Positions 2,227-52,304 of a DNA stretch of 64,000 nucleotides are shown here, one piece after another. The notes under the pieces are model-generated. The model did not search any database, was not told the origin of the DNA, and saw only the letters and a list, made by a program, of their open reading frames with translations. The stretch is taken from contig OY820905.2 of NCBI GenBank assembly GCA_963555755.3, positions 3,712,001 to 3,776,000 of the forward strand, read 5' to 3'. The translations under genes were made by a program, and so were the position numbers. The number at the start of each line of letters is the position of its first letter. The stretch's first letter is position 1. This DNA is from Nitrospirales bacterium (GTDB lineage Bacteria > Nitrospirota > Nitrospiria > Nitrospirales > UBA8639).

Positions 2227-2367
2227 GGGCACCTCTAAAAACCGTCCTTTTCCGTGATGGCGGCGTCAGCCGCGTGCTCACATCCTCATGTATTCGCCCA
2301 TACACTCCGGTTTTCCGCGCGCGGCTTCCTTGCCCGCACAAAAAATGCCTGGTTTTTAAAGGTGCCC
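2227..2367. mobile_element. MITE-like family A, copy 1 (141 bp)
   Basis: TIR GGGCACCTCTAAAAACC/GGTTTTTAAAGGTGCCC with a TGAT direct repeat on both flanks; near-identical copies at 7370, 10852, 19761, 24032. Confidence 0.9.
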
Positions 2368-2565
2368 TGATGCTGTTAATAATCAGGAACAATTGTCCGA
2401 CATAGTAACACGATTTGCCGGACGGTCGACGGGAATAGAAAAAACATGCCGGGTATCGGATGGGACCAACTACGCGTTCCTCACTATTGGATTTTTCAAG
2501 CATGTCATTGGTGATGCCATTGAAGGCCAACATACCGTGCAAATAAAATATTCCACTATTATACT

Positions 2566-4119
2566 GTGTGGATTGCAATGCAAACTGCCTCAGACGAAAA
2601 AGCCTTGTTCCGGGTTGACACAGGAATGATGGAAACCAAACCTATTCTCTCTACTCTCCTTGCACGGCGTAAGTCGATTGTGATGAATGTGAAGATGGCC
2701 CGCGTCATTACCCGGCCGTATCTGCCTGCCGGTGAAAAACGTATCCGAAACGTTATCCACCGGGTGCTGAATCTGGACGAGGACCAGGCCTGTTCGATAC
2801 TGGAAACCATCTTGAATGACTTCTCTCACCGTCACCGGGGCTTCAGGGTGGCGCTAGAGCGAAATTTCGAAAGAGTAATCCCCTTTATACCGAACGTCGA
2901 TAACCTGTCGAAACAACGGCGGCTTCTGATCGGCGCGTACTTTACCGCGGAATACTCTGTGGAAGCGGCGGCGTTGTTCAATCCCTCCATCGTGCAATTT
3001 CCGTCTCAAGACACGGATCCTGAAGGATCCTGCCGTTTCATTATGAGCTTTCGTGCCACCGGTGAAGGACACATCTCATCCATCGAGTTTCGCAGCGGAA
3101 TTATTGATATGAACAACGATATCTATTTCGATCCCCTGAGCGATTACGTCGAAACTCCAGAAATTCATCACAATCCAAGCTATGACCGGGACCAGTTTCG
3201 GCTGAAACTTCAGGAAATGGGGGCGAGCAACCTGGTGACACAATGGCTCCTCAGCCAATTGGCGGACACATTTACCTTCCACGACCTTCAGGGAAAGATC
3301 GTCGAACTCCAGGGCGTCGACCATTTCACACCACGAGAGAAAGCGGATGGCATCGAAATGTCGATGTGGCTGGCGCAATCCAATTACCAAATTTTCTTTC
3401 AAAAAGATCACCCGATTTCCGAGCGGGTCATCTTTCCGGTCTCGGAATCCGAGCGTAAGGGGATTGAGGATGCCCGTTTCGTGCGTTTCGTTGATGAGGA
3501 TGGCACCGCGACCTACTACGCCACCTATACCGCGTACAACGGAGAGACGATCCTGCCGCACCTCATTGAGACTGGAGACTTTCTCTCATTTAAGATTACG
3601 ACCTTGAATGGAACACAGGCGCAGGACAAAGGAATGGCTCTGTTCCCGAGAAAGATTCGTGGAAAGTACGCCATGCTGTCACGTCAGGGTGGAGAGAACA
3701 ACATGATCATGTTCTCGGACAATCTGTACTTCTGGGAGAAGGCCCAAATTTTGCAAAAGCCTATGTTTCCATACGAATTCATACAAATGGGGAACTGCGG
3801 CTCTCCCATTGAGACACCTGAAGGTTGGCTTGTTTTGACCCACGGGGTTGGCCCGATGCGGACCTACAGTATCGGACTCGAGTTGCTGGACCTGGAAGAT
3901 CCAACCCGGATAATCAGACGGATCGACGAGCCGATTTTGGTGCCGAATGAACATGATCGTGAGGGATACGTCCCCAACGTGGTGTACAGTTGCGGTGCAA
4001 TAATCTACCAGGACGAATTAATCATCCCGTACGCCTCGGCCGACCAGCGCTGTGGCATAGCGACTCTGCCAGTACCGCCAGTGATGGCCAGGCTGGCACA
4101 GAGTTCCACCGATAGATAG
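2566..4119 (+). CDS. GH130-like glycosidase with N-terminal extension (true start may be later, e.g. ATG 2683)
   Basis: EYSVEAAALFNPS, GIEDARFV, DKGMALFPRKI, GNCGSPIET and EGYVPNVVYSCG motifs. Confidence 0.85.
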   Translation: MWIAMQTASDEKALFRVDTGMMETKPILSTLLARRKSIVMNVKMARVITRPYLPAGEKRIRNVIHRVLNLDEDQACSILETILNDFSHRHRGFRVALERNFERVIPFIPNVDNLSKQRRLLIGAYFTAEYSVEAAALFNPSIVQFPSQDTDPEGSCRFIMSFRATGEGHISSIEFRSGIIDMNNDIYFDPLSDYVETPEIHHNPSYDRDQFRLKLQEMGASNLVTQWLLSQLADTFTFHDLQGKIVELQGVDHFTPREKADGIEMSMWLAQSNYQIFFQKDHPISERVIFPVSESERKGIEDARFVRFVDEDGTATYYATYTAYNGETILPHLIETGDFLSFKITTLNGTQAQDKGMALFPRKIRGKYAMLSRQGGENNMIMFSDNLYFWEKAQILQKPMFPYEFIQMGNCGSPIETPEGWLVLTHGVGPMRTYSIGLELLDLEDPTRIIRRIDEPILVPNEHDREGYVPNVVYSCGAIIYQDELIIPYASADQRCGIATLPVPPVMARLAQSSTDR

Positions 4120-4155
4120 CCCAGCCCCGTTAGGCAGTTGGGGTCACATCGCTTC

Positions 4156-6492
4156 CTACGACGCCTCGCGAGCCTTCAATTGGGTAAGTTCTCCTTCCTG
4201 TGTGACATGCTCCAAACCGCGGTGGTTGTAGACGGCGAGCAGCGCCATGAGCCAGCAAAGAGAGGACTCTGCGCCCTGATTTTCATTCGCGCCATGCGTT
4301 TCCAGTCCATCCCGGCATCCCCCAGTGGAGTGGTCGTAGAGCGGAATCCTCAGGTCGTTCTCCCCCTGGTACCAGTTGAGACACCGGTACGCTTCAGCGA
4401 TCCATTCCTCGTCCCGCGTGCAGTTGAATGCCTCAATGCAGGCGTCCACCATCGCTGCTGCCTCGAGGGGCTGTTGATCGAATCGCGACTTTTCTCCGTC
4501 TCTGGCGAACCACCCCTGGTTGCCGATAGCGGCGAAATGGCAGCCTATCTCATCGGTCTGAACTTTCTTTAGCCAATCGAGCGCACGCAGTCCCATCTCT
4601 AGCATCTCCTGGTCTGGAAGCCATTGCCCTGAAAGCAGTAAAGCCTGTGGCAGTCTGGCGTTGTCGTAGGTCAGGACATCCTCACACCAGGGCCAGTCTT
4701 CGGTGGCGGAATCCCTGAACTGTTTCATGAGCTTGTTGGAAAGTATCTTGCGCATCTTTCTCGCCCGACTGTCCCCACTGTAGCGGGATAGGTACGCATG
4801 AATACCGATGATGACGAAGGCGATCGCCCGTGGGTGTGTGAAATGCTCGGTGGTTCCCAGCGCACGATGGAACAGGTCTGCCGCAAAATCCACCTGTCCC
4901 TTATCCCGACCCAACGCCACTGCGACGCCCAGGTCCCCCACCGCGCGACCGTGGGAATCCTCCGAGCCTGTTTCCTCGAGCCAGCGGTGATCATAGGACA
5001 TGAAGTTCCGGAACCGGTTGGTCTGACCATTGAAGGCATGGCCCAGAAAACTCAGGTACACGGTGATAAGGTCGCTCGGTGAGGAATCCAGAGGCTGGAG
5101 ATCCTGTGCCGTGACGGCGACAATCAACGCACGGGCATTGTCGTCCACGCAATAGCCGTGCGTCCGGTCTGGAACCGTGTACTGGGAGTGCTGAAGCATG
5201 CCCGTTTTATCGGTCATCCGGCGCACATGGTCCAGCTTGATCTCTGGTAGCTGTTGCTGGCGTAGTCCGAGGGTCTCCAATCTCCGCACGGGTACGATCT
5301 TTCGCAATCGTTGGCGTTTGGCCTCCACGAAGGTCTCGATATAGCGTCTGCCTACGTTGCTCCAGACCATTCTTCGACCGTAGTCATAGGCTCTCTTCTG
5401 CATGGCGCGGAGCTCGTCGGGATGGTCCAGGAGGTTGATGATCTTCCGTGCGAGTTGAATGTGATCCCGGAACGGAACCAATCTGCCTCGACCGTCGGCG
5501 AGCAGCTCCTGAGCGTGCCAATACGGTGTGGAGACCACCGCTTTGCCCATCCCAAACGCATAGGCAAGCGAACCGGATATAATCTGCGCCTCGTTCAGGT
5601 ATGGGGTGACATAAATATCTGCCGCCCCAATAAAGTCCCGCAAGTCCTCGTCGGCCATGAAACGGTCGTGGAAGACAATGTGGTCCGCGACACCGAGCTT
5701 TTTCGCGCGCAGATGAAGGCTGATTCTGTAGTTCTCCCCCTGTTCTGCCTTGAGGTGCGGATGGGTGGCGCCTACCACCAAGTAAATGACCTGTGGTTGG
5801 GCCTTCAGAATCTCCGGCAGGGCATCGATCACCACCTCAATGCCCTTTCCCGGCGAAAGCAGCCCGGAGGTCAGAATGACGCTCCTCCCCAATATGCTGA
5901 ACTTTTCCTTGTAGGCGTCGGATTCAACGAACGGGACGTCAGGAATGCCATGGTGAATCAGGATAATTTTCTCCTCCGGAACCTTGTAGATATCGCGCAG
6001 AAATTCGATTGACCGTTCGCTCATGACAACCAGCCGATCGGAGAATTCAGAGAGTTGCATCATAATATGCCGGTCCTGGAGGGTCGGATCTTTCAAGATC
6101 GTGTGCAAAGTCGTCACGACCGGAATCTTGATGTCACGCAACAGCTCGATAATGAAACTGCCCCGCTGGCCACCGAATATGCCGTATTCATGCTGGAGAC
6201 AGATCACGTCCACCTGGTTGAGGTTGAGCAGATCGGCGGTTAGGCTATATTCGTTCAGGAGGTTCTGGTTGATCTCGAACCGCACCTGAGACGGATAGGG
6301 ATAGCCTTCGGGCCGATCGTTCATCGCGACCGCCCAACAAGCTTTGTCCGGTGCATTCAGAGCGATTGATTCAAGAAGGTGCGAAGTGAATGTAGCCATG
6401 CCACACTGCCTGGGAAGGTAGTTCCCGATGAGGACAATGGCCTTTAGTGTTTCCCACTCCGGCCGTGAGCCTGTCTGGCTGTGGGTTTTCAT
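4156..6492 (-). CDS. GT4 glycosyltransferase with C-terminal alpha/alpha-barrel-like domain
   Basis: GNYLPRQCG, LQHEYGIFGG, GLLSPGKGIE and VVSTPYWHAQE motifs; C-terminal YCVDDNARAL...NENQGAESSL domain. Confidence 0.88.
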   Translation of the reverse strand: MKTHSQTGSRPEWETLKAIVLIGNYLPRQCGMATFTSHLLESIALNAPDKACWAVAMNDRPEGYPYPSQVRFEINQNLLNEYSLTADLLNLNQVDVICLQHEYGIFGGQRGSFIIELLRDIKIPVVTTLHTILKDPTLQDRHIMMQLSEFSDRLVVMSERSIEFLRDIYKVPEEKIILIHHGIPDVPFVESDAYKEKFSILGRSVILTSGLLSPGKGIEVVIDALPEILKAQPQVIYLVVGATHPHLKAEQGENYRISLHLRAKKLGVADHIVFHDRFMADEDLRDFIGAADIYVTPYLNEAQIISGSLAYAFGMGKAVVSTPYWHAQELLADGRGRLVPFRDHIQLARKIINLLDHPDELRAMQKRAYDYGRRMVWSNVGRRYIETFVEAKRQRLRKIVPVRRLETLGLRQQQLPEIKLDHVRRMTDKTGMLQHSQYTVPDRTHGYCVDDNARALIVAVTAQDLQPLDSSPSDLITVYLSFLGHAFNGQTNRFRNFMSYDHRWLEETGSEDSHGRAVGDLGVAVALGRDKGQVDFAADLFHRALGTTEHFTHPRAIAFVIIGIHAYLSRYSGDSRARKMRKILSNKLMKQFRDSATEDWPWCEDVLTYDNARLPQALLLSGQWLPDQEMLEMGLRALDWLKKVQTDEIGCHFAAIGNQGWFARDGEKSRFDQQPLEAAAMVDACIEAFNCTRDEEWIAEAYRCLNWYQGENDLRIPLYDHSTGGCRDGLETHGANENQGAESSLCWLMALLAVYNHRGLEHVTQEGELTQLKAREAS

Positions 6493-6657
6493 TGGGGAAG
6501 AGGAAAAACAAACTCCATTTTTTGACTAGCACGAAAGTAGCAAAGGGACCGAGTGGTGTCAATGACACCAATCAGCGGTTTAAAAATGTTCTTGGATTCA
6601 GCAGGCGCTTCAACCTAGAAACAGCAATTGGATCACAAAAGTCCGCGCAAGCTCTTA

Positions 6658-6837
6658 GGACCTGCGAGAAAATAACTTGAACAATCTCGCATCCAATCTT
6701 CGGGCCATCTTTGAACGGGCCTCAATCGAAAAACCCTCACCATAGCTGTGCTATGCCTCGAGTGTTTCTCAATCGTTTCGTCCAAATCCGACCCAAATCT
6801 TGGCGCGATATTGATCAAGTTATTTTCTCGCAGGTCC
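6658..6837. mobile_element. MITE-like family C, copy 1 (~180 bp)
   Basis: TIR GGACCTGCGAGAAAATAACTTGA/TCAAGTTATTTTCTCGCAGGTCC with TTA flanks; copies at 21676 and 45842. Confidence 0.9.
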
Positions 6838-6840
6838 TTA

Positions 6841-7103
6841 GGGTCCGTCACGAAATAACCGGGACAATTGGCCGAGACGATTTTGGAGCGAGCCAAGGAG
6901 CGAAGAGCGCGCATACCGGGAGTATGGAAGCGATGAGCGACGCCGGCGGAGCCCAAAAGCGTCCGGCCCTCCGGGGAGGCCCATCTTTGGCCCGGGGCGG
7001 CGTTGCTCCTCGGTCACAGAGCCCCGCTCTGCTCCCTCGTCGCGCCTTGCCCCGATCACAAATCTGGGCCTCCCAATTGTCCCGGTTATTTCGTGACGGA
7101 CCC
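6841..7103. mobile_element. MITE-like family D (263 bp)
   Basis: 31-bp TIR GGGTCCGTCACGAAATAACCGGGACAATTGG/CCAATTGTCCCGGTTATTTCGTGACGGACCC with TTA flanks. Confidence 0.85.
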
Positions 7104-7369
7104 TTAGCGCACCTGATAAAATACAAAAATGCCTTATCACCACCGAGGTGACTACGACTTTTTGTATTTCATCATGCACACCAATATCTTACACGGCTTT
7201 TTTTGCGCCCAACTGCCGTGTCTAGGTTCAAAGAAAAAACTTAGATGGGGGAAAAAGGCTACTTCTCTCGTTCCGTGGTGATCTGCTATCTGGTTCTTAG
7301 AGATCCGGGAAGGGGAGCGTAACGGGAGGAAATCTGAAAGAGCTGTCGGGAGTCTAAGGAGAAGATTAA

Positions 7370-7510
7370 GGGCACCTCTACAAACCAGGCATTTTTTGTG
7401 AGGGCAAGGAAGCCGCGCGCGGAAAACCGGAGTGTATGGGCGAATACATGAGGATGTGAGCACGCGGCTGACGCCGCCATCACGGAAAAGGACGGTTTGT
7501 AGAGGTGCCC
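7370..7510. mobile_element. MITE-like family A, copy 2 (inverted)
   Basis: Same TIRs; TTAA on both flanks. Confidence 0.9.
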
Positions 7511-7738: not shown

Positions 7739-7794
7739 TCAGGTGCTTTCCGTTTTGTGAATCAGAACAATGTGGGCCTGACCCAACAGGACAA

Positions 7795-8278: not shown

Positions 8279-8593
8279 ACCTAGAAGCAGCAGTGTGGAT
8301 CACAAAGGTCCGGGCAAGCTCTTGGCCACCTGGTAAAATACATCACAACGAAGTGACCACGAATTTTTTTATTTCACCATGCGCACCAATATCTCACACG
8401 GCTTTTTTGCGTCCAACTGGTGTTTCGAAGCCTATCCGAGATTAGCGATCGTCACGAGGATGTGCTGGTTTGAGTCAGATATTTCGATCGTTTGAGGCGA
8501 ATAGTTGGGCTATTCAACGAGAAGGATCGGAATATCTGGCCAAATCCCGTGCATCCGGAGTAGATCCGTCTAATCTTTGACAGGCTCCTGGGA
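8279..8593. mobile_element. Degenerate family E copy with family F (8428-8587) inserted in its right TIR
   Basis: ACCTAGAAGCAGCAG start and E-like body, then an F-like body similar to 30157-30316; TGA on both outer flanks. Confidence 0.75.
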
Positions 8594-9951: not shown

Positions 9952-10116
9952 ACCTAGAAACAGCAGTTGGGCGCAAAAAAGACGTGTAAGATATTGGTGT
10001 GCATCGTGAAAGAGAAAAAGTCGTGGTCACCTTTGTGGTGATGAGACATTTTTCTCTTTTGCGAGGTGCGCCAAGAGCTTGCGCGGACTTTTGTGATCCA
10101 ACTGCTGTTTCTAGGT
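9952..10116. mobile_element. MITE-like family E, uninterrupted copy (165 bp)
   Basis: TIR ACCTAGAAACAGCAGTTGG/CCAACTGCTGTTTCTAGGT with a TGA duplication. Confidence 0.9.
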
Positions 10117-10282: not shown

Positions 10283-10439
10283 GGGTTCGCGCAAGAATAA
10301 CTTCCCCTATTTGGGCGTCGATCCATCCCGTCTGGCGGCGTTGCTCGTCCTTTCCATACGAGGAGTATGCGCAGTCCTCGCGCCTTGCCAGACAGGTGTC
10401 TCAGCACCCAAATAGGGGAAGTTATTCTTGCGCGAACCC
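10283..10439. mobile_element. MITE-like family B, copy 1 (157 bp)
   Basis: TIR GGGTTCGCGCAAGAATAACTTCCCCTATTTGGG and its complement; TTA duplication; copies at 15197, 24330, 47875. Confidence 0.92.
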
Positions 10440-10851: not shown

Positions 10852-10992
10852 GGGCACCTCTAAAAACCGTCCTTTTCTGTGATGGCGGCGTCAGCCGCGT
10901 GCTCACATCCTCATGTATTCGCCCATACACTCCGGTTTTCCGCGCGTGGCTTCCTTGCCCTCACAAAAAATGCCTGGTTTTTAAAGGCGCCC
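10852..10992. mobile_element. MITE-like family A, copy 3
   Basis: ATAA duplication; lies inside the FlhG-like pseudogene. Confidence 0.92.
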
Positions 10993-11436: not shown

Positions 11437-13465
11437 ATGCCAGACGAATCCCCAAGCGGACAGCCGGACATCGATCTGGGGCAAGTGGTGGTTCGCCCAA
11501 TTGTCCGGGACGAGAAGGACACCTTCAAGACCCTGCTCGACAGACATCACTACCTCGGGTCTGCCCCGCTGATTGGCCCATCGATCCAATACCTCGCCTG
11601 TGTGCAGGATCGCTGGCTGGCCTTGCTGGTGTTTGCGGCGGCGGCCCTCAAATCGAAACCGCGCGACCACTGGATCGGCTGGCCCCCCTGTTTTCACTGG
11701 CAACGCCTCCATTTACTAGCCAACAACACCCGGTTTCTCATCCTGCCGGGCTGTTCGCAAAAGAACCTTGCCTCGAAAGTCCTGTCGCTCTGCACGAAAC
11801 GGATCACGGCTGATTGGCAAATGTGCCACGGCTACCCCGTGCTCCTCTTAGAAACCTTCGTCGATCCTGCCCGCTTCACCGGGACCTGCTATCGAGCCGC
11901 CGGGTGGCAGGAGCTCGGGCTGACCCGAGGGTTTCGCAAGGCCAATACGCGGTATGTTCCGCATGACCGCCCCAAACGAATTCTGGTCAGAAGTCTGCAT
12001 CCCCAAGCCCGAGCGATCCTGGCCCGCCCGATGTTGGAGCCGCTCTATCAGAAAGGAGAGGTACCTCAGATGCGATTGAATGCCAAGCAGACGAACTCCC
12101 TGTTTACCTATGTGGTGCAATTGACCGATCCACGCAATTTGCAAGGGCAACGACACACCCGACGCGCCCTCACCGCGATCATGTTCTGTGCCACCTTGTG
12201 CGGCGCCGATGGCTATGAAGCGATCTCGGACTGGGCCCAGCAGTTATCTCAGACGATGCGCAAGCGGCTGGGATGCACCAAACGAGGGGGCCGCTACCTC
12301 GTCCCGAGCCGCAGCACACTCTACCGATTTATCTCGGCCGTCGACCCCTGGGAAGTCGACACCCTGCTCGGCCGGTGGCTGGACACCTTTGGGGGGGAGG
12401 ATCAGGGCATCGCCATTGATGGCAAGACCATGCGGGGGACTTCGAAGGTCCCGAGCGAACAGACCCATGTCCTCAGCGCCGTCACCCATGACGAGGGGCG
12501 CCACCTCACCCCAAAAAAGTCGACACCAAGACCAATGAGATCCCCTGCGTGCGTCCCTTATTAGATGAGCTGGAGATCGAAGGGAAGGTCATCACGGCGG
12601 ATGCGCTCCTCACCCAGAAAGAGATCGCAAATTACCTTGTGCAAGAACGCGGGGCCGACTTCGTCTTCACCGTCAAGGGGAACCAGCCGACCTTGAAGCA
12701 CGACATTGAGGCCTTGGATTTGACCGCACAACGATGTGATGATGAGACGACCGATAAGGGCCATGGGCGAATCACGATCCGCAGGATCTGGTGCGACGAC
12801 TCCCTGAATGCCTCTGTCACCTTTCCCCATGTGCAGCAAGTCTTCTGCATTGAGAGGGAAGTCGCGCATCTCAAGAAGGGCATCACGACGGTAGATACCG
12901 TATGCGGAGTCACAAGTCAGTCACCAGCGAAGGCCTCGCCGAAGAAAATCCTCTCGCAAAACCGGAAGCATTGGAGTGTGGAGAATAAGCAGCATTATGT
13001 GTTGGATGTCACCTTTGATGAAGACCGGAGTCAGATCCGACGGCTCAATGGCCCGATGGTCATGACCTGTCTGCGACGCTTGCCCTGAATGCCTCTGTCA
13101 CCTTTCCCCATGTGCAGCAAGTCTTCTGCATTGAGAGGGAAGTCGCGCATCTCAAGAAGGGCATCACGACGGTAGATACCGTATGCGGAGTCACAAGTCA
13201 GTCACCAGCGAAGGCCTCGCCGAAGAAAATCCTCTCGCAAAACCGGAAGCATTGGAGTGTGGAGAATAAGCAGCATTATGTGTTGGATGTCACCTTTGAT
13301 GAAGACCGGAGTCAGATCCGACGGCTCAATGGCCCGATGGTCATGACCTGTCTGCGACGCTATGCCATCAGTCTCTTACGCGTGAAAGGCCAAACCAATA
13401 TCGCGCAGGCGTTTCGATGGCTCTGGGCCAAGCCCCATGTAGCCATCCGCATGGCTCTGCCCTGA
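11437..13465 (+). pseudogene. DUF4338-like/ISAs1 DDE transposase (-1 frameshift), disrupted by tandem duplication
   Basis: HHYLG, RDHWIGW, NNTRFLILP and ETFVDPARFTGTCYRAAGW, followed by IAIDGKTMRG, TNEI, ITADAL, VKGNQPTL and HWSVEN; premature TGA at 13086-13088. Confidence 0.85.
12802..13361 (+). repeat. Direct tandem duplication of 279 bp
   Basis: 12802-13080 is repeated at 13083-13361 with no differences seen; absent from copy 2. Confidence 0.95.
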
Positions 13466-15196: not shown

Positions 15197-15354
15197 GGGT
15201 TCGTGCTAGAATAACTTCCCCTGTTTGAGTGCTGAGACGCCTGTCTGGCAAGGTGCGAGGACTGCGCATACTCCTCGTATGGAAAGGACGAGCAACGCCG
15301 CCAGACGGGATGGATCGACGCCCAAAACATGGGAAGTTATTCTTGCGCGAGCCC
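15197..15354. mobile_element. MITE-like family B, copy 2 (inverted)
   Basis: Family B TIRs; lies between rimP and nusA. Confidence 0.88.
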
Positions 15355-19180: not shown

Positions 19181-19462
19181 ATGATTGTCGGAGTGTGTCA
19201 GGTTCGCTTACACTTGCCGGATGGTCATTCACTCAAGGCCAAGCGTCAAGTCCTCTCGAGCTTTAAAACGCGATTATGTCAAGCTTTCAATGTTTCTGTC
19301 GCCGAGGTTGGCGATCACGATCTTTGGCAGCAAGCGACATTGGGGATTGCCTGTGTGGCGAATGAAACACGCCATGTCAATGCGGTATTGGATCAGGTCC
19401 TGAATGTCATTCGATCCAACCCTCACCTGGAGTTATTGGAGTCGCACATCGAACTGTTGTAG
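19181..19462 (+). CDS. DUF503/YlxP family protein
   Basis: SLKAKRQV...FNVSVAEV..HDLWQ motif; typical position between infB and rbfA. Confidence 0.9.
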   Translation: MIVGVCQVRLHLPDGHSLKAKRQVLSSFKTRLCQAFNVSVAEVGDHDLWQQATLGIACVANETRHVNAVLDQVLNVIRSNPHLELLESHIELL

Positions 19463-19670
19463 GGAATGTTGAAAAAGGGCGTCAGCCATCGCCAAGGCTA
19501 CGGCAGACAAGCCAGCAGCGTTCTCGGCCCTTGGTTGTGCTCACGTACTCACCCGTACGCTCAGGGCGCCAAGCCTACTCCGCCGAAGTGGCTACGAAGG
19601 CCGGGAGCACCTGCGGCCTTGCTGAGCGCACCTCCCGCCTCCGCGAGGGCATGCTTTTTGAACATCCCCT
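19461..19670. repeat. Family G palindromic repeat/MITE with internal small insertions
   Basis: AGGGAATGTTGAAAAA...GCCAGCAGCGTTCTCG...GCGGCCTTGCTG...TTTTTGAACATCCCCT; begins at the ylxP stop codon. Confidence 0.85.
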
Positions 19671-19760: not shown

Positions 19761-19901
19761 GGGCACCTCTACCAACCAGGCATTTTTTGTGAGGGCAAGG
19801 AAGCCGCGCGCGGAAAACCGGAGTGTATGGGCGAATACATGAGGATTTGGGCACGCGACTGACGCCGCCATCACGGAAAAGGACGGTTTTTAGAGGTGCC
19901 C
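19761..19901. mobile_element. MITE-like family A, copy 4
   Basis: Family A TIRs and body; TSD not clean. Confidence 0.88.
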
Positions 19902-21675: not shown

Positions 21676-21854
21676 GGACCTGAGAGAAAATACCTTGGAC
21701 AATATCGCGCCAAGATTTGGGTTGGATTTGGACGGAACGATTGAGAAACACCCGAGGCATAGCACAGCTATGTTGAGGGTGTTTCGATTGAGGCCCGTTC
21801 AAAGATGGCCCGAAGATTGGATGCGAGATGTCCAAGTTATTTTCTCTCAGGTCC
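21676..21854. mobile_element. MITE-like family C, copy 2 (inverted)
   Basis: GGACCTGAGAGAAAATA/TATTTTCTCTCAGGTCC with a CTG duplication. Confidence 0.9.
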
Positions 21855-24031: not shown

Positions 24032-24192
24032 GGGCACCTCTACAAACCAGGCATTTTGGTGAGGGCCCAGGCATTTTTTGTGAGGGCAAGGAAGCCGCGC
24101 GCGGAAAACCGGAGTGTATGGGCGAATACATGAAGATTTGAGCACGCGGCTGACGCCGCCATCACGGAAAAGGACGGTTTTTAAAGGTGCCC
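24032..24192. mobile_element. MITE-like family A, copy 5, with ~20-bp internal duplication
   Basis: The CCAGGCATTTT..GTGAGGGC segment is duplicated in tandem. Confidence 0.88.
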
Positions 24193-24329: not shown

Positions 24330-24486
24330 GGGCTCGCGCAGGAATAACTTCCCCTGTTTGGCCGTCGATCCATCCCGTCTGGCGGCGTTGCTCGTCCTTT
24401 CCATACGAGGAGTATGCGCAGTCCTCGCGCCTTGCCAGACAGGTGTCTCAACACCCAAACAGGGGAAGTTATTCCTGCGCGAACCC
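24330..24486. mobile_element. MITE-like family B, copy 3
   Basis: Family B TIRs; TTA duplication. Confidence 0.9.
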
Positions 24487-30156: not shown

Positions 30157-30316
30157 GAGCCTGTCCGAGATGAGCGATCGTTACGAGGATGTGCTGGTTT
30201 GAGTCAGATGTTTCGATCGTTTGAGGCGAATAGTGGGACTATTCAACGAAAAGGATCGGAAGATCTGGCCAAATCCAGCACATTCGTAGTAGATCAGTCT
30301 AATCTTGGACAGGCTC
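30157..30316. mobile_element. MITE-like family F, uninterrupted copy (160 bp)
   Basis: TIR GAGCCTGTCC/GGACAGGCTC with CTAG on both flanks; the right CTAG contains the tsaE stop codon. Confidence 0.9.
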
Positions 30317-30867: not shown

Positions 30868-31083
30868 AGGGCCTGTTGAATATTGCACTCCAACAGCCAA
30901 TAAAAGCTCCAAATGAGCCACGCATCGTCAGTGGGAGGGAATGTTCAAAAAAGCATGCCCTGAGTCTTTCCGAAGGGTCTATCCAGCAAGGCCGCAGCCA
31001 TTTTGACGAGCGGAGCGTACTCATAGTACGTGAGCACGGCAAAATGGCGAGAACGCCGCTGGCGGCTTTTTTCAACATTCCCT
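30868..31083. repeat. Extended family G element
   Basis: G core at 30936-31083 plus an upstream arm starting AGGGCCTGTTGAA. Confidence 0.75.
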
Positions 31084-31158: not shown

Positions 31159-32382
31159 TTACGCAGTTGCTCTTAGGTATTGTTTGGTCATATTCGCCAA
31201 ATGATATTGCTCGTCGTATGGCATCTGGTGTTCCCACATGCGGAAAATGATTTTCAACCATTTGGCCCCTAAGGCCCGCAGGGCCTGGTTGTGCCGATGG
31301 CCGCGGGTGCGACACTGTTGATAATAATGCTTCGCCCACTCACTGTGTCTCAACGACTGAAAGGCCAACTGCCAAATTGCCTGCCGAAGGTGCTTGTTGC
31401 ACGCAACACGAAATCGCACGACACAACTTTTCCCACTCTGCCGTGTCAGCGGCACGGTGCCGGCCTGGGCTTGCAGATGGCTCCAGGATGCCCAGCGGCC
31501 TGGGGCATCGCCCAATTCCGCCCACAAGCGGGGAATCATCGTGCCACTAAGGCCTCCCGGCAGCGTCCGCATCCACTCAGCTGCCGGGAGGGTTCCGAAA
31601 AAACGTTCAATCTCCGTCTTGTATTCCGTCACCGCGCGGTGGGTCACCAACACCTGCGCGATCAGCACGTCCACCAATCGGGCCTTGGCCCGCACGACAT
31701 GCTCGGGCACCGGTATTTGGGGCGCTTTCAGTTGCGTCCACAACTCGGTTGTCCGTGCCGGGCCCAGCCGATGCTGGCGCGCAAACCGCTGCCACTGGCT
31801 CAGCCGTAGCGTGGTCAGGGTGGCCGGGGTCGGATAGGTTTGCAGAAAATCCAACGCCAGCTGCGTAGTCAGGTCCCCAAAGAGATCCAGCACACGGGGG
31901 TAATATTCCTTCAGCATGCTCGTGAGCTGATTGAGCATCCGCGTCTGTTGGCGCCCGAGTCGCGCATGATCGCGGGTCAGGAGTTTTAATTCTTGGGCCG
32001 CGACCGAGCTGGGCGGCAGGGGCAGGAGGTGCCCGTGATCGGTGCGCAGAAACTCCGCCAAGACCCGCGCATCAAAGGGGTCACTTTTCGAGCCACTCAT
32101 CCGAAACCGATCGCGGGCGCGATCTAAGGCTTTGGGATTCACAGGATACACGACCACGCCATGATCCAACAGATAATCCACCACGCGCCCGTCGGGTTTT
32201 TCAATGGCCGCCCACAGCTCAATGCCGGCGGCACGCCATTCATCAAGTTGTCGCCCCCAGACGCTCAGCCCCGTTGGCGTATGGGCCACCATCCCTTCCC
32301 AGACGATCGCGCCCGTCTCCTCTCGCACACACACGCCATGCTGCTCCTCGCCCCAATCCACGCCCAGGTAATACCGTGCCAT
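31159..32382 (-). CDS. IS110 DEDD recombinase/transposase
   Basis: YLGVDW, AIE and KSDPFDA (DEDD RuvC-like); QAGTVP..RQSGK serine motif; AAGGAG RBS before ATG 32382. Confidence 0.95.
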   Translation of the reverse strand: MARYYLGVDWGEEQHGVCVREETGAIVWEGMVAHTPTGLSVWGRQLDEWRAAGIELWAAIEKPDGRVVDYLLDHGVVVYPVNPKALDRARDRFRMSGSKSDPFDARVLAEFLRTDHGHLLPLPPSSVAAQELKLLTRDHARLGRQQTRMLNQLTSMLKEYYPRVLDLFGDLTTQLALDFLQTYPTPATLTTLRLSQWQRFARQHRLGPARTTELWTQLKAPQIPVPEHVVRAKARLVDVLIAQVLVTHRAVTEYKTEIERFFGTLPAAEWMRTLPGGLSGTMIPRLWAELGDAPGRWASWSHLQAQAGTVPLTRQSGKSCVVRFRVACNKHLRQAIWQLAFQSLRHSEWAKHYYQQCRTRGHRHNQALRALGAKWLKIIFRMWEHQMPYDEQYHLANMTKQYLRATA

Positions 32383-32389
32383 GAATTTC

Positions 32390-32612
32390 TCCTTTCTCGA
32401 CGCTTCCCGTAGCGCGGTGAACGACTCGTTGGCCTTATATCGGTCCTCAGGGGGACGACTTCCTATTGAACGTTGCTCGCCGTTCCTTGCCTGGGGGGGA
32501 CTGTCTGTCCTGGCTCCTTGAGAGGGAGTAGGCCTTTTGGGTCCTCGCCCCAGCAAGCGCCAGGGATGCATGATCATGAATAAAGAACAGAACGTTACCA
32601 CAAATAACTCCA
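32390..32612 (-). ncRNA. Predicted IS110 bridge RNA
   Basis: Non-coding left end contains 8-10 nt segments matching both element ends and the target flank, arranged around short hairpins (see findings). Ends are approximate. Confidence 0.75.
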
Positions 32613-35435: not shown

Positions 35436-35722
35436 GAACCAGTCCGAGATTAGGGATCGTTGCGAGGGGGTACTGGGTTGAGTCAGATATTTCGATCGTT
35501 TGAGGCGAATAGTGAGGCTATTTAACGAAAACGGGGATTGTTCAAAAAGGCTGTCCAGCAAGGCCGCAGGGCTTTTGGCGCGCGGAGCGTACACGGAGTA
35601 CGTGAGCACGCCAAAAGCCCGAGAACGCGGCTGGCGGCCTTTTTCAACATTCCCCGAAAAAGATCGGAAGATCTGGCCAAGTCCAGCGCATTCGCAGTAG
35701 ATCCCTCATCTCGGACGGGCTC
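35436..35722. mobile_element. Family F element with family G (35532-35656) nested
   Basis: F body interrupted at AACG-AAAA by a 125-bp CGGGG...CCCCG element with an AAAA duplication. Confidence 0.85.
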
Positions 35723-35754
35723 ACAGATTTTCAAGGAAGGTCATACGCGTACGT

Positions 35755-43692: not shown

Positions 43693-43968
43693 ATGCGAAA
43701 AGCCGATATTGCCAACGAGATTTGCGAAAAGGTTGGGGCGTCGAAAGCCGAGTCCATGGAACTTGTTGAATATGTCCTGGATGCGATTAAGTCCGTGCTA
43801 AAGAATGGTGAACCTGTCAAGATCGCTGGTTTTGGGAACTTCATGGTTCGAAGCAAGGGCGAGCGCAAGGGACGAAATCCTCGGACCGGTGAGGAAATTG
43901 CCATTAGTCCCAGGCGAGTGGTGACATTTCGGGCTAGCCAAATTTTTAAAAAATACGTGAATTCCTAG
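43693..43968 (+). CDS. ihfA: Integration host factor subunit alpha
   Basis: GFGNF, GRNPRTGEEI and RRVVTF motifs; conserved ihfA-merR-tRNA-Pro order. Confidence 0.9.
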   Translation: MRKADIANEICEKVGASKAESMELVEYVLDAIKSVLKNGEPVKIAGFGNFMVRSKGERKGRNPRTGEEIAISPRRVVTFRASQIFKKYVNS

Positions 43969-44150
43969 TCACTCCTTAGGTTTGCTTCAATTTTGGCTCA
44001 GGACAAGGCGCAAGAAGCGCAGAACCGGAGCGTATTGGGAATACGTGAGGGCGCACGGTGCGAAGAGCACCACGTTTGTGCGCGCCGAAGGCTTGCGAGC
44101 ACCACAGTAATGCCGTCATGAGACAAAAGGGAAGTGACCTGAGGAGTGAC
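43968..44150. mobile_element. MITE-like family I (183 bp)
   Basis: TIR GTCACTCCT.AGGT/ACCT.AGGAGTGAC; ATTCCTA on both sides; contains the shared core hairpin. Confidence 0.7.
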
Positions 44151-45553: not shown

Positions 45554-45704
45554 GGGGATGTTGAAAAAGGGCGTCAGTCTTCGCCAAGGCTACGGCAGAC
45601 AAGCCAGCGGCGTTCTCGGCCCTTTGTCGTGCTCACGTACTTTCGTACGCTCCGCGCGCCAAAGTGCCTGCGGCCTTGCTGAGCGCATCTTTTTGAACAT
45701 CCCC
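45554..45704. repeat. Family G copy
   Basis: GGGGATGTTGAAAAAG/CTTTTTGAACATCCCC ends; closely similar to the 19461 copy. Confidence 0.88.
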
Positions 45705-45841: not shown

Positions 45842-46020
45842 GGACCTGAGAGAACATAACTTGGACATCTCGCATCCAATCTTTGGGCCATCTTTGAACG
45901 GGCCTCAATCGAAAAACCCTCAACATAGCTGTGCTATGCCTCGGGATTTTCTCAATCGTTCCGTCCAAATCCGACCCAAATCTTGGCGCGATAGTGTCCA
46001 AGTTATGTTCTCTAAGGTCC
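45842..46020. mobile_element. MITE-like family C, copy 3
   Basis: Family C TIRs; TAA duplication. Confidence 0.9.
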
Positions 46021-46847: not shown

Positions 46848-46937
46848 GCGGTGAAGAAAAAGAGGACGCTACCCTTTACATGTCACTAAGAATGATTGAC
46901 CTGGTTAGCGGAAGGGAATGAACGATCAGTCCCTCTC

Positions 46938-47036: not shown

Positions 47037-47093
47037 AACGGGGGGCCTCAGAGTGACAACAAGCTGGATCGTGCAGAAAAGTTAGGTATAACT

Positions 47094-47408
47094 CTATTCG
47101 CTTGACTGTTCAGGCAAAAGGTGAGATCCAACATCCATGCTGGCGTGAGGGATGCCGATGATTTCTATGATAGTGTCCGTGACTCTGTAGAAAATTATAT
47201 GCTTTCCTTCGGGAAGGCTTCTGTAATCTTTCAGTATGTCAGGTCTTGATCGTCCCAGATAGGGAGTTTTCACCAAATCATGGAATGTTTTTTCAAACTG
47301 GAAAACATATTTCTCGGCCTGCTGCTCGCCCCATCTTTCGAATGTGTACCGCCATATTTCTTGTAAATCATTCTTGGCAGCGGGCGTCAGCTTATAGTCA
47401 TTGGGCAT
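47094..47408 (-). CDS. parE: ParE-family toxin
   Basis: YKLTPAAKNDLQEIWRYT..RWG..QA..Y and HIIFYR motifs. Confidence 0.92.
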   Translation of the reverse strand: MPNDYKLTPAAKNDLQEIWRYTFERWGEQQAEKYVFQFEKTFHDLVKTPYLGRSRPDILKDYRSLPEGKHIIFYRVTDTIIEIIGIPHASMDVGSHLLPEQSSE

Positions 47409-47658
47409 TATGCTCTTGTTTGGCTTCTTCTATAATCTTCGAGATGGACTGATCAACGAATTCACCACGGTCGGCCTGCTCTGCCCCAACAGCTAGTTTC
47501 GTGCGAAGTTTCTCCAGCTTCATCTGATAGATCAACTCTTCGTGAGTTTCCATGAAGCGCAATGCTTCACGAATCACCTCACTCGCGTTGTTATAGAGAC
47601 CGGTTTGAACTTTTGATTTGACGATTTTTTCAAGCTCCGGTGTGAGTGATATATGCAT
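47398..47658 (-). CDS. parD: ParD-family RHH antitoxin
   Basis: ISLTPELE...V..GLYNNASEVIREALR motif; overlaps the toxin start. Confidence 0.92.
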   Translation of the reverse strand: MHISLTPELEKIVKSKVQTGLYNNASEVIREALRFMETHEELIYQMKLEKLRTKLAVGAEQADRGEFVDQSISKIIEEAKQEHNAQ

Positions 47659-47874
47659 GATGCAACCCTCCTATGTTTCATAGTGTGAGCAATGATACAA
47701 TGATTGTCAAAGTTTGTATTATTTAAAGAGTCACAGATGGGTGGAGACAGACTCGTTGCACCACTCCTGTTTCAGGATAGTTGTCGTGTCGGTTATGTTA
47801 AAAGTAGAACCACGGGGGTTTCTAGTTTTCACTGCTGTTTTAAGGTTCCGGCAAGTGTAAGACAACTTCCCTTA

Positions 47875-48030
47875 GGGTTCGCGCAAGAATTACTTCCCAT
47901 GGTAGGCGTCGATCCATCCCGTCTGGCGGCGTTGCTCGTCCTTTCCATACGAGGAGTATGCGCAATCCTCGCGCCATACCAGACAGGTGTCTCAGCACCC
48001 AAACATCTGAAGTAATTCTTGCGCGAACCC
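47875..48030. mobile_element. MITE-like family B, copy 4
   Basis: Family B TIRs and body. Confidence 0.9.
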
Positions 48031-48115
48031 TAAGGAGATTTATCTACGCGCGGGCCGGATTCAAAGAGACGAAATTCCATCGGAAATTCAAACATACATA
48101 ATATGGGGTGGATGA

Positions 48116-48820
48116 ATGGCTTTGGTTTTAATGAAGGGACAGGAAGTCTGGTTTTTGAATCGCTGGAAGAAACGGAACCATGTTGGGTCCGGCCGTGGGC
48201 GTATTGCTGCGATTACGGTCGCCATCCTAGTCTCTCTCGGGCCGATATTGGCACAGGCGCAGGATAAAATTTCTGACGAGGTGGCTGTTGCGGTCTCTCG
48301 TGGCCGAGTATTGGGTATTACTAGTGGAGGCGGGTTTGTCAGAGCGCGTCTGAGCGCTGGAGAAACCGTGCTCTTGACCGAATCAAAAGGCATCAACGCT
48401 TTGGTGCAAACGTCTGACCGATTGCTGGGGTTTTCCGGCCCAGTGCAGAGATGGAGAGAGCAACGATTGGATATCTCCGAGAGCGTGCAGAAAACCCAAG
48501 TCACCTCACGGTTGATTTTTGTCCGGACTGATAAGCGGCTGTATGGCTTTCAAGGCCCCATCGGTCGGTGGAAGGTGCAGGATCTCGGTGTTCAAGAAGA
48601 GCATCTCCAGACAGTCGTACAAAATCACATTGCCGTGGTCGTGACCGACCGACGGGTGTTAGGTTTCTCTACGTTTACCGGCGGGTTTTTCGCTGAAGAT
48701 TTATCCAATGATGAAACGATCGAACATGTCGAGGCTAATGATAACATCATTGTGTTGTTCACCTCGTCCCGAAAACTCATCTTTCGTTCGCGCTTAGCCG
48801 TGTGGGCGGAAACTCGATAA
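48116..48820 (+). CDS. Exported hypothetical protein with ~38-aa beta repeats (start uncertain)
   Basis: Signal-like segment ending AQA; repeated V.T..R..GF...G.W units. Confidence 0.75.
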   Translation: MALVLMKGQEVWFLNRWKKRNHVGSGRGRIAAITVAILVSLGPILAQAQDKISDEVAVAVSRGRVLGITSGGGFVRARLSAGETVLLTESKGINALVQTSDRLLGFSGPVQRWREQRLDISESVQKTQVTSRLIFVRTDKRLYGFQGPIGRWKVQDLGVQEEHLQTVVQNHIAVVVTDRRVLGFSTFTGGFFAEDLSNDETIEHVEANDNIIVLFTSSRKLIFRSRLAVWAETR

Positions 48821-49102
48821 AGGGCTGGACGTCCTTTTTTAATTGCCCCTAAAATTTGAGTACTTTTTCCCTTCTGTCATCCCCGACATCCCTAATCGGG
48901 GATACAGGTTTTTCCTTGTGTCATTTCGACCCCTTCTACCAATCATAGGTAGCTAATGCAACCGCTCCAGTTCTGGCTCCCTCATGCCCGATATCCTTTA
49001 TCGGGAATCCAGATTTCCTCTGGCAATGAATAGTCTTGGCAAGTTCAGAGCTGTGCGGGGTGTGGTTTTGGTAGGAATTATCTTGCAATGACAAGAGAGG
49101 TC

Positions 49103-49327
49103 TCAGGCATACATATACACGGGAGCGTGTTTGTGTGGCTTCATGGGTTGCTCTATCAATTCTTCCAAATGCCGGATAGTGTTGGGTGCGAGGAGGGTGT
49201 CGGAACAGACGTCACAGACTTCTGCGGGAACTCGTTCAAAAACAAGGACGTCCTCTCCGCGTTTCAGAGTGTGAACGATGAGGCGTTCCTCATAGTTTCC
49301 TGGGCATCCTTGAACACTGCATTGCAT
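49103..49327 (-). CDS. YgiT/MqsA-type zinc-finger protein
   Basis: MQCSVQGC...VPAEVCDVC motif. Confidence 0.85.
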   Translation of the reverse strand: MQCSVQGCPGNYEERLIVHTLKRGEDVLVFERVPAEVCDVCSDTLLAPNTIRHLEELIEQPMKPHKHAPVYMYA

Positions 49328-49329
49328 GT

Positions 49330-49665
49330 TTATTTTCCTCTTTGGAAAGGCGTCACCCATTTAGGCGCGCGTGGTTCATAAACCGTGATGATTATCGCAT
49401 GTTCAAGCGTTGTTGTACACACGACATGTACGTATCTTCCATGTGACGTTTGCTTGCAAATCAAACAGCAGGGACCCCGACGGTGTTCCGCATAATTTTC
49501 CACGAACGTGGCATCAAGAAGGACCTCCAGGATCTCCTCAAGGGAAATATCTTCCTCCACCATCTCCTGATGTCCGTGAAGAGTGATCCGAAGCTTGTCA
49601 GTTTCGGCTTGCCGTCGCAACTGCGCCAATATCGCGTCGGGATCCTGGGTATCAATGTCGGTCAT
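49330..49665 (-). CDS. DUF4258 family protein (putative RNase toxin)
   Basis: T.H...EM, HVVC and IITVYEP..PKW motifs; paired with the YgiT zinc finger. Confidence 0.85.
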   Translation of the reverse strand: MTDIDTQDPDAILAQLRRQAETDKLRITLHGHQEMVEEDISLEEILEVLLDATFVENYAEHRRGPCCLICKQTSHGRYVHVVCTTTLEHAIIITVYEPRAPKWVTPFQRGK

Positions 49666-49782
49666 GGTTACAAAAAGACGCGGAGAATTTAATGGTCTTC
49701 ACACATGGAGCCAAGGAAATCAAATTTTGTCAGCGAGTCTACCACAAGTTGGATGAATAAGCCGTGATTCCTAATTTTGCAG

Positions 49783-51686
49783 CAGGGCTATTTCATATTA
49801 AAGTGTAACTTTATAGATAATAAGGAATAATCGATTTAGGCTGGCTTTTTCTTTTCGTTTACGGCATACTCTTTTGCATGCCAGACGAATCGCCAAGCGG
49901 ACAGCCGGACATTGATCTGAGGCAAGTCGTGGTTCGCCCAATTGTCCGAGACGAAAAGGACGCCTTCAAGACCCTTCTCGACAGACACCACTACCTCGGT
50001 CATGCCCCGCTGATTGGCCAATCGATACAATATCTCGCCTGTGTGCAGGATCGCTGGCTGGCCTTGCTGGTGTTTGCGGCGGCGGCCCTCAAATCGAGAC
50101 CGCGAGACCACTGGATCGGCTGGCCCCCCTGTTTTCAATGGCAACGACTCCATTTACTGGCCAACAACACCCGGTTTCTCATGCTGCCGGGCTGTTCGCA
50201 AAAGAACCTCGCCTCGAAAGTCCTGTCGCTCTGCGCGAAACGGATCTCGGCCGATTGGCAACTGTACCACGGCTACCCCTTGCTCCTCTTAGAGACCTTC
50301 GTCGATCCTGCCCGCTTCACCGGGACCTGCTATCGGGCCGCCGGGTGGCACGAGCTCGGTCTGACACGAGGGTTTCGCAAGTCGAACACGTGTTATGTTC
50401 AGCATGAGAGACCGAAGCGCATCCTAGTCGTGCGGCTGCATCCCCAAGCCCGAGAGATCCTTGCACGCCCGATGCTTGATCAGCCCTATCAGAAAGGAGA
50501 AGCGCCTCAGATGAGATTGAATACAAAACAGACGGACTCCCTCTTTACGTATGTGGTGCAGCTGACCGATCCCCGCCATTTGCAAGGGCAACGGCACACC
50601 CGACGCGCCCTCACGGCGATCATGTTCTGTGCCACCTTGTGCGGCGCGCGCGGCTATGAAGCGATCTCGGACTGGGCCCAGCAGTTATCGCAGCCGATGC
50701 GCAAGCGGCTAGGCTGTACTCAGCGAGGGGGGCGCTACCTCGTCCCGAGCCGCAGCACTCTTTACCGCTTTATCACGGCCGTCGACCCCTGTGAAGTCGA
50801 TACCCTGCTCGGCCGGTGGCTGGACACCTTCGGCGGGGAGGATCAGGGCATTGCCATTGATGGGAAGACCATGCGGGGGACGTCGAAGGTCCCAAGCGAA
50901 CAGACCCACGTCCTCAGCGCCGTCACCCATCAAGCCGGGCGCCACCTCACCCAAAAAAAGTTCACTCCAAGACCAATGAGATCCCCTGCGTGCGGCCCCT
51001 GTTAGATGCGCTCGAGATCGCAGGGAAGGTGATCACGGCGGATGCGCTCCTCACCCAGAAAGAGATTGCCGAGTACCTGGTGCACGAACGCGGCGCCGAC
51101 TTCGTCTTCACCGTCAAGGGAAACCAGCCCACCTTGAAGCACGACATTGAGGCCTTAGCGTTGCGAGCACGCCGGTGCGATTATGCCACCACCGAGAAAG
51201 GCCATGGGCAGATCACGACCCGCAGGATCTGGTGCGATGACTCCCTGAATGCCTATGTCAACTTTCCTCATGTCCAGCAAGTCTTCTGCATTGAGAGGGA
51301 AGTGACGCATCTCAAGCAGGGCCTCACGACCGTCGAAGCGGTCTGCGGTGTCACGAGTCAGTCCAAAGACAAGGCGGGGCCGAAGACCATCCTCTCGCAA
51401 AACCGAAAGCATTGGAGTGTGGAGAATAAGCAGCATTATGTGTTGGACGTCACCTTTGATGAAGACAGGAGTCAGATACGAAGTCTCAATGGCCCAATGG
51501 TCATGACCTGTCTGAGACGCTATGCCATCAGTCTCTTACGCCTGAAAGGCTACACCAATATCGCGCAGGCGTGTAGACTGCTCTGGGGCAAGCCCCATTT
51601 AGCCATCCGCATGGCCCTGCCCTGAAAAAGAGGGCACAAAAAACCTCATGGAATCCCTTGCTTATAAAAAGAATGAAATGGCCCTG
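49783..51686 (+). mobile_element. ISAs1-family element, copy 2 (intact, 1904 bp)
   Basis: TIR CAGGGCTATTTCAT/ATGAAATGGCCCTG; 10-bp TSD AATTTTGCAG. Confidence 0.95.
49878..51625 (+). CDS. DUF4338-like/ISAs1 DDE transposase via -1 frameshift at A_AAA_AAG (50954-50960)
   Basis: ORF1 49878-51005; the -1 frame continues KVHSKTNEIPCVRPLL...ITADAL...HWSVEN. Confidence 0.88.
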
Positions 51687-51749
51687 AATTTTGCAGGGTG
51701 GGAATTGCTCACCTTTTAATTTTATGCGGGGGCGACACCCCACATTTAA

Positions 51750-52304
51750 ACCTAGAAACAGCAGTTGGATCACAAAAGTCCGCGTAAGCTCTTGACGCAA
51801 CCTAGGAGCCTGTCCAAGATTAGACTGATCAACTGTGGGTGTGCTGGAGGTGGCCAGATCTTCCGATCCTTTTCGGGGAATGTTGAAAAAGACCGCCAGC
51901 TGCGTTCTCGGGCTTTTGGTGTGCTCACGTACTCCGTGTACGCTCCGCGCGCCAAAACCCCTGCGGCCTTGCTGGATGGCCTTTTTGAACATTCCCCGTT
52001 TTCGTTAAATAGTCACCACTATTCGCCTCAAACGATCGAAACATCTGACTCAAACCAGCACCCCCTCGTCACGATCGCAAATCTTGGACAGGCACCTCGC
52101 AAAATAAAAAAAGTCTCATCACCACCAGAGATTACCCCCCCACTCTTGTCATTTCGACCCTTGGGAGAAATCTGTGGTTCGGCAGAAGGGAGATTTCTCC
52201 CAAGGGTCGAAATGACAGCCCCGAGGTGACTACGACTTTTTTTATTTCACCATGCACGCCAATATCTTACACGTCTTTTTTGCGCCCAACTGCCGTTTCT
52301 AGGT
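51750..52304. mobile_element. Family E copy carrying F (51806-52095), itself carrying G (51874-51998), plus palindrome H (52147-52217)
   Basis: ACCTAG/CTAGGT ends with a TAA duplication; each inner element retains its own TIRs. Confidence 0.88.

Follow-up and report, generated by a model that had tools for sequence, protein, structure and literature searches.

Several families of short bacterial repeats, among them ERIC, Correia, YPAL, and RUP, are handled separately in the parts of the literature available here (PMC10969869, PMC2229807, PMC11602168, PMC2267715, PMC2759123, PMC3049150, PMC5172473). ERIC, also named IRU or RU-1, occurs in Enterobacteriaceae and Vibrionaceae; a table of PMC2229807 gives it as 127 bp long with short TA-ended repeats, and the excerpts of that source know of no DNA motif in it beyond the terminal repeats. 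Bacterial miniature transposable elements with inverted repeats (MITEs), such as Correia/NEMIS, RUP, Chunjie, and QMITE, have ends matching an insertion sequence (IS), a target duplication, no gene, a stable stem-loop, and a habit of nesting (portions of PMC10969869 and PMC2229807). MITEs are usually described as deletion derivatives of their IS. The DNA analyzed here is a stretch of 64,000 nucleotides (the window, C1:3712001-3776000) in the 4.62 Mb genome (51% GC) of a Nitrospirales bacterium, the MITEs of which share all of these features; their interior, however, is absent from the matching IS and common to MITEs of different IS families. Sequence comparison supports the presence of a conserved structured module of the ERIC type inside interchangeable terminal repeats. 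We found no paper with one core common to MITEs of different IS families, subscription papers and supplements, which may bear on the novelty, lying outside the search.

A sequence-only reading of the window had assigned a common 5-bp hairpin, NRTAN-(5-6 nt)-NTAYN, to seven MITE families (A, B, C, D, F, G, and I) with supposedly unrelated ends, and all seven hairpins are found, position and stem alike. Perfect instances of the pattern number 24 in the window versus 1.12 ± 1.03 (maximum 4) in 100 dinucleotide shuffles, and 885 on contig C1 versus 83, 89, and 92 in three shuffles. The named families hold 22 of the 24, and the short repeats, which make up 6.6% of contig C1, contain 681 of the 885; a single hairpin with both flanking motifs lies outside the repeat clusters. 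Because copy amplification inflates such counts, the real test is the comparison between families. De novo clustering recovers the same families plus more.

The 5-bp stem is the tip of a purine-rich rod of 65-85 nt, carried on one strand and composed of two modules. The outer module is a loop in which CAAGG faces ACGCMG, and which may resemble the symmetric loop of the signal recognition particle RNA. In the apical module, tandem GA/GA and a G-T pair precede a stem whose T-A and A-T pairs are fixed and whose loop varies. The flanks noted earlier, CGGAG...TGAG in A, G, and I and CAAGG...AYGCNG in A, B, D, G, and I, are present and all lie on this purine-rich strand; at the copies of A, B, C, and G first described, it is the minus strand. 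The downstream motif had been written AYGC(C/G)G; the motif holds, its fifth base being C or A oftener than G. Similarly, the purine of NRTAN is found in the seven stems originally given but not everywhere, as T takes its place in 11 of 45 cores from other genomes (see below).

On the basis of the spacing of the two modules, A, G, I, and a relative of G form a long class (22-24 nt apart), and B and the two cores of D, which have opposite orientations, form a short class (13 nt apart). Both modules are found in A, B, D, G, and I; C and F are without the outer module and have the apical one alone. F was also considered as a zero-turn form of the outer module; this was rejected, two cores (L123 and L168) identifying its flanks as an apical-module variant. 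Plain MAFFT alignment of all families left the tips out of register, and the two size classes were modeled separately. With RNA as well as DNA parameters, folding favors the purine strand over the complementary one in A, B, C, E, F, G, and I, by only ~1 kcal/mol in G; D, with its two opposed cores, shows no such advantage. The rod of C has 2x2 purine loops about every 11 bp. Family E, a rod MITE of the same size in the same window (9953..10115, plus strand) with CCTAG ends and a 5-bp duplication, has a TCACC/GGTGA tip and neither module, and is an in-genome counter-example; the folding energies of its strands are -100 and -63 kcal/mol (RNA parameters), with loops about every 11-12 bp.

The elements are MITEs by their terminal inverted repeats, a length below 500 bp, and many copies. 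Full-length copies with both ends number 118 for A, 143 for B, 77 for C, 37 for D, 59 for E, 40 for F, 187 for G, and 6 for I, for which a looser search gives nine core-bearing copies. Judged by terminal sequence, the ends fall into five classes, four of them tied to an IS family, and those of B, C, and D are related, so that the seven unrelated sets of ends of the sequence-only reading were not borne out. The ends of A (141 bp; 2227..2367, with the long-class core and its stem TGTAT/ATACA on the minus strand) agree at 14 of 14 terminal bases with IS5 elements of 1.3 kb in other genomes of the phylum (L340, L341, and L364), and a 4-bp target duplication flanks 95 of the 118 copies. The ends of F (160 bp; 30157..30316, plus strand, apical stem only and the weakest member) agree at 14 of 14 with an IS1182 of the same genome, with a 4-bp duplication in 12 of 40 copies and CTAG as the target and commonest flank. 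The same 14 of 14 is found between I (43968..44150, plus strand, long-class core with an added side hairpin at ~44049-44092) and a 12-copy IS66 of the same genome; an 8-bp duplication with at least seven matches is present in 7 of 9 copies of I, the one in the window matching at 7 of 8.

The remaining ends are of the ISAzo13 type or belong to G. Those of D (263 bp; 6841..7103, plus strand, short-class cores at 6888-6952 on the plus and 6992-7055 on the minus strand) agree at 13 of 14 bases with an ISAzo13 of 1289 bp that lies between TTA flanks and, among the 80 metagenome loci compared of 120 found, is the one complete copy. B (157 bp; 10283..10439, minus strand, short-class core) and C (180 bp; 6658..6837, minus strand, nested in an E copy) agree at 15 of 22 with ISAzo13, and B, C, and D have 12 of 20 terminal bases in common pairwise together with a 3-bp TNA duplication (82 of 143, 51 of 77, and 10 of 37 copies, respectively); the ends of B and C are probably ISAzo13-type. 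One B insertion (24330..24486, minus strand) is confirmed by the relative G305, which has an empty site with a single TTA, and an A copy (19761..19901, plus strand) is likewise absent from the orthologous site of G305. Family G (51876..51996, minus strand, long-class core) has a 5-bp duplication. Its variant, of which there are many genomic copies, has three ends, and it is the additional outer one, lying 68 bp upstream of the hairpin, that bears the duplication (34 of 154 copies); of the copies inside F, 25 of 33 have a 5-bp duplication. Two candidate partners of G were set aside: an IS5 (L006/L007) with an 11 of 14 end match, because its duplication is 4 bp and that of G 5 bp, and a 343-aa frame between G ends, which is an IS110 inserted into G. 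The ends of E have no match to the IS1380 of the genome. A BLAST search of 32-nt ends against plasmids gave chance-level matches and no helper, with the exception of one short element with E-like ends in a plasmid region (L211).

The modular system proposed in the sequence-only reading is supported in that the ends are those of four IS families, these IS lack the core, and the wrappers are mixed. A covariance model built from 12 A/G/I-type cores of this genome only (A, G, I, and one G relative; model R1) detects no core inside the matching IS among the elements of 15 IS-bearing loci; at one of the IS5 loci (L340) a strong match lies outside the IS. A-type ends are seen with a different long core, with a short core, or with an empty interior, and F-type ends with full short and full long cores. 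One derived side hairpin occupies the same core position in the window copy of I, in three G-ended copies, and in A-ended copies of two relatives. Moreover, the families nest at fixed sites, with G inserted in F (45 left junctions), B in the tip of E (32), E in C (21), and C, D, and F in E, as seen in the window at 6614-7230, 35436-35724, and 51751-52303. We infer that such nesting is a route to new pairs of ends and cores.

The same core is found in ERIC. In E. coli K-12, the 12 ERIC copies located with the published ERIC2 primer (primer table of PMC10117815) have the layout CAAGG...GGAG-stem with TA-loop-TA-TGA...ACGCMG, with the long-class spacing (25/25) and on the same folded strand as the elements here, and both groups are intergenic, rod-shaped, and non-coding. 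Unlike the 127-bp ERIC with its TA-ended repeats, the elements here are ~120-263 bp long and have IS5, ISAzo13, IS1182, or IS66 ends with duplications of 3, 4, 5, or 8 bp. The ERIC1R and ERIC2 primers have no match in the genome at up to four mismatches, and 9 and 1 matches, respectively, at five. Judged by ends, length, and primers, the elements are therefore not ERIC, although they carry an ERIC-type core; the objection that the motif is already catalogued holds for the core and not for the elements. At the gathering score the core belongs to no family of Rfam 15, a search that returns only a tRNA from the window, and seven of eight family loci of the genome are without a match at E ≤ 1, C giving a weak match to a miRNA model.

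In K-12, the R1 model yields 10 matches at E ≤ 1. Primer-defined ERIC copies take the first three ranks, another two matches have the shape of ERIC, and the other five come from a second repeat family, the apex of which resembles that of A and I. This whole-genome run missed 9 of the 12 primer-defined copies; of the ERIC loci given to the model directly, five of five scored, at 27-37 bits. In the window, R1 also recognizes B, I, and one D core, and not C, F, or the other D core. A second model (R2), from 24 short cores of other genomes, recovers each of the four B copies in the window and the two cores of D; its matches to C are weak (E of 0.009, 0.047, and 2.3), and it has none to F or in E. 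coli; the short class, one turn shorter, is present here and was not found in E. coli. The second K-12 family, which is probably RSA, lies at 192690, 1007736, 2543699, 2689577, and 2746361 (W01; L082 and L084-L087). For RSA, the tables of PMC5172473 list 150/151 bp and six copies, with no coordinates. The apical module of the five copies is nearly identical to that of A and I, but the CAAGG/ACGCMG module is missing and the arms are different; their other strand weakly matches the Rfam sRNA sX9 (29 bits, cut-off 44). The pneumococcal BOX A1R primer contains the outer-module motif GCAAGGCG (primer table of PMC10117815), and BOX is a possible further member of the group.

DNA that folds in a strand-specific manner and conserves its unpaired bases is likewise characteristic of REP/REPIN-RAYT and of integron attC sites. 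The elements here differ from these in having DDE-type ends and duplications and no HUH or tyrosine-recombinase signatures, and with such ends the core-bearing families are not REP/REPIN members. No attC boxes (RYYYAAC...GTTRRRY) were found around the cores, and the RAYT locus of the genome (L012) has no match with R1.

Beyond this genome, R1 has matches in 24 of 61 genomes of the phylum, and near-identical G-type cores occur in records titled Nitrospira, Nitrospirae, and Nitrospirales. A pattern scan that fixed the outer motif and two TA dinucleotides was run on GTDB and viral contigs, giving at least 121 genome loci and at least 120 viral loci, of which 80 each were compared. Among these listed matches, the three stem pairs that the pattern leaves free are all complementary in 45 of 80 genome loci versus 2 of 80 viral ones; the viral matches are chance-like and served as control. 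By record titles, the 45 well-paired cores belong to nine phyla, namely, Bacteroidota, Desulfobacterota, Actinomycetota, Bacillota, Nitrospirota, Pseudomonadota, NC10, Planctomycetota, and Acidobacteriota. The module spacing of 43 of the 45 falls into two bands, 13.5 ± 0.5 and 23.5 ± 0.6 nt, on both arms, and none has a spacing of 16-21 nt although the pattern permitted it. The 10-nt step, made on both arms at once, corresponds to one turn of the folded helix. Being 10.0 nt, the step is nearer to B-DNA (10.5 per turn) than to A-RNA (11), a slight indication of DNA; the 11-bp loop period of C leans toward RNA.

In these 45 cores, all four Watson-Crick types occur at stem pairs 1 and 2, and three of them at pair 5. 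Covariation was also evaluated in an alignment not fitted to structure, comprising 24 short cores that were hand-picked, partly by apex pairing. Two-sided change is seen at 12 of its 16 pairs, and the share of cells that pair is 87.5%, compared to 61.6% after shuffling and 23-44% after sliding; the number of pairs that change on both sides is by itself no better than in shuffles (276 of 500). A structure-fitted alignment gives the same picture.

Variation among the genomic copies indicates where selection may act. Private variants are evenly spread (0.41-0.60 per site), while variants present in at least three copies are rarer in the core loops and stems (0.33-0.38) than in the outer loops (0.75) or the apical loop (0.85). 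At paired sites, 100 of 166 such shared variants keep the pairing versus 67 of 221 private ones (p=5e-9), and G-T versus A-C on the purine strand stands at 47:26 in shared variants (p=0.019) and 50:38 in private ones. In the 187 copies of G, the motif bases depart from the consensus at a frequency of 0.022; the remaining inner bases do so at 0.117, those of the outer arms at 0.34, and those of the apical loop at 0.41. As to orientation, the purine strand is on the leading strand in 330 of 667 copies, in the sense of co-directional genes in 213 versus 214, and in the sense after stop codons in 117 versus 137; just upstream of genes there is a slight purine-strand-sense excess, 96 versus 65 (p=0.018). 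Selection on the lagging strand or on the transcript strand was thus not seen in the 667 copies. Since the shared variants keep the fold more often than private ones and there is no orientation bias, selection appears to act during the element's own propagation, and the core likely has a role in the spread of the element rather than in service to the host. The four largest short families are all core-bearing (G, B, A, and C, with 231, 166, 123, and 93 copies).

The explanation that we prefer, while giving it slightly less than an even chance, is that the core is a cis-acting folded platform, with a conserved host protein predicted at its two phased loops, which raises propagation for any wrapper. 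The cognate transposases (of IS5, ISAzo13, IS1182, and IS66) would mobilize the elements in trans, and the folded single strand would act in cis whichever transposase reads the ends. The two loops would lie on the same side of the helix and constitute a two-point protein site. The benefit to the element might be, for example, easier pairing of both ends of a 120-180 bp unit or the shielding of a single-stranded intermediate. New families may arise when a core gains new ends, either by nested insertion followed by deletion or by recombination between cores. For the 155-bp Correia element, an IHF site has been proposed to help transposition, in the excerpts at hand. This site is a functional precedent for a core that helps transposition. 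A plant precedent is said to come from the 2009 work of Yang. A broader version, in which the ERIC core is a pan-bacterial, transposase-independent transposition enhancer, i.e., a single-stranded DNA platform with whole-turn-phased loops and a conserved host reader that the miniature elements of any DDE family can borrow and hand on from wrapper to wrapper, we consider somewhat doubtful.

A number of observations weigh against a platform that promotes the element's own spread. DDE transposition acts on double-stranded DNA, and a role for a folded strand therefore needs an extra step. Since the core-less E reaches 67 copies and, of 34 paired IS66-type ends, nine have the core pattern and 25 do not, a high copy number neither requires the core nor is assured by it; C and F, furthermore, thrive with half of the module. 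Neither an ISAzo13 gene nor any autonomous partner for A-E was found in the genome, although the family search was without signal in any control genome too. Among the other G copies, 80 of 98 lack a duplication at the hairpin (inner) ends. The depletion of variants in the core loops over all six families is modest (p=0.037), and A shows little of the contrast seen in G. The pair-keeping shared changes can also result from template switching between hairpin arms, and the orientation test rests on gene calls from our own simple predictor.

We have also considered alternatives in which the core serves a different end. In its RNA form, it could allow the host to tolerate insertions or to profit from them, by way of mRNA processing, stability, or read-through, and be kept for this reason; elements in which the core is correct would persist and hence spread. 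Such a role has been proposed for ERIC in Yersinia, and ERIC is co-transcribed and alters upstream mRNA stability depending on orientation (PMC2229807 and PMC10969869, in the excerpts used). An architecture rich in G-U and with tandem GA is suited to RNA, 37 of the 45 cores of other genomes fold better on the purine strand (RNA parameters), and the sX9 match of the second E. coli family and the excess upstream of genes point the same way. That excess, however, comes mostly from A and from G, in which the extra outer end shifts the distances, and the absence of bias with respect to co-directional genes and stop codons means that half of the transcribed copies would expose the other strand. In addition, the RNase E site reported for ERIC is located in the terminal repeat and not in the core, according to the same excerpts. 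On balance, we regard such a host RNA role as unlikely.

It is also rather unlikely, in our judgment, that the core is itself the selfish unit, copied or recombined by a non-DDE enzyme or by gene conversion, with the IS-type ends marking hosts that it has entered and DDE transposition as a second vehicle. HUH enzymes and integron integrases do recognize strand-specific hairpins with fixed unpaired bases, and the genome has a RAYT gene. Such a unit would also account for the recurrence of the derived side hairpin at a single position of the core in three wrappers, for the A/I-type apex in the different arms of the second E. coli family, and for the many G copies without duplication at the hairpin ends. 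Against this, all families examined have clean IS-type ends with the matching duplication length, the hairpin with both flanking motifs occurs only once outside repeat clusters, repeats with RAYT-type ends (families 7 and 26) are without the core, and the cores have no attC boxes. Finally, all families may descend from one ancient hairpin MITE without function, the stems being kept by arm-to-arm template switching, which would yield two-sided changes without selection, and the ends drifting to the available transposases. The cores are homologous in sequence, with ~14 successive bases following the apex in common among A, I, and the second E. coli family. Template switching, however, would erase mismatched loops, yet the loops are the best-conserved bases, on one strand, and two spacing bands 10 nt apart and conservation across nine phyla are left unexplained; such a history appears very improbable.

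The other copies in the window show the same architecture and a good deal of nesting. Those of A lie at 7370..7510 (plus strand), 10852..10992 (minus), and 24032..24192 (plus, left end doubled), those of B at 15197..15354 (plus) and 47875..48030 (minus), and those of C at 21676..21854 (plus, CTG on both flanks) and 45842..46020 (minus). F is found at 8428..8587 (plus) and, with right ends that are approximate, at 35436..35724 (plus), where the common hot spot is occupied by a G copy (35534-35654), and at 51806..52095 (minus), with the G copy described above and inside an E copy (51751-52303), E being a frequent landing site for B, C, D, and F. G is present as the variant at 30869..31082 (plus), the hairpin being 30937-31082, as a copy with side hairpins inserted in the arms at 19462..19669 (minus), and at 45554..45704 (minus). 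At 24396 in the window, contigs of four public runs exit the B copy at one core position into common foreign sequence, which suggests that another element targets B in other strains.

The surroundings comprise housekeeping genes (rimP-nusA-infB-rbfA-truB-pnp, mutS, and the threonine pathway) and mobile genes, namely, two ISAs1-like elements, one IS1595, and one IS110; genome-wide, ~738 kb are covered by repeats occurring at four or more places. The window IS110, a 480-aa frame at 31159-32601 on the minus strand, ends 76 bp past a G-variant copy. A different IS110 (324 aa, NF033542) occupies one and the same site within the G-variant MITE each time (G000:C1:1893134-1894491, L001, and ~11 further places), and another (L005) interrupts an E end; RNA-guided IS110 elements appear to use these MITEs as landing pads. 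The ISAs1-like copies (11437-13465 and 49878-51625), which have ~39 related copies in the genome, are split over several frames in the window, the first frame comprising a DruA-like domain (PF14236) and a DDE-associated domain. A ParE-family toxin-antitoxin gene (47094-47408, minus strand) adjoins a REP-like repeat. Elsewhere in the genome, a C-like MITE (family 21, seven copies) lies 5' of an ISCR/IS91-type transposase frame at several places (e.g., G000:C1:497164-498651, L002), and in another family of the phylum core-bearing elements are located directly upstream of apparent tRNA genes (L064-L066, the last being a tandem pair).

ERIC has long been used for typing, and the reviews, in the parts available here, name no function for its interior beyond the mRNA effects in Yersinia. 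If the core is indeed selected in elements of at least four IS families and nine phyla, it would be a functional module, and the view of MITEs as hollowed-out IS would be incomplete. The fixed bases and the whole-turn spacing define precise mutants, and the present genome offers matched wrappers with and without the core.

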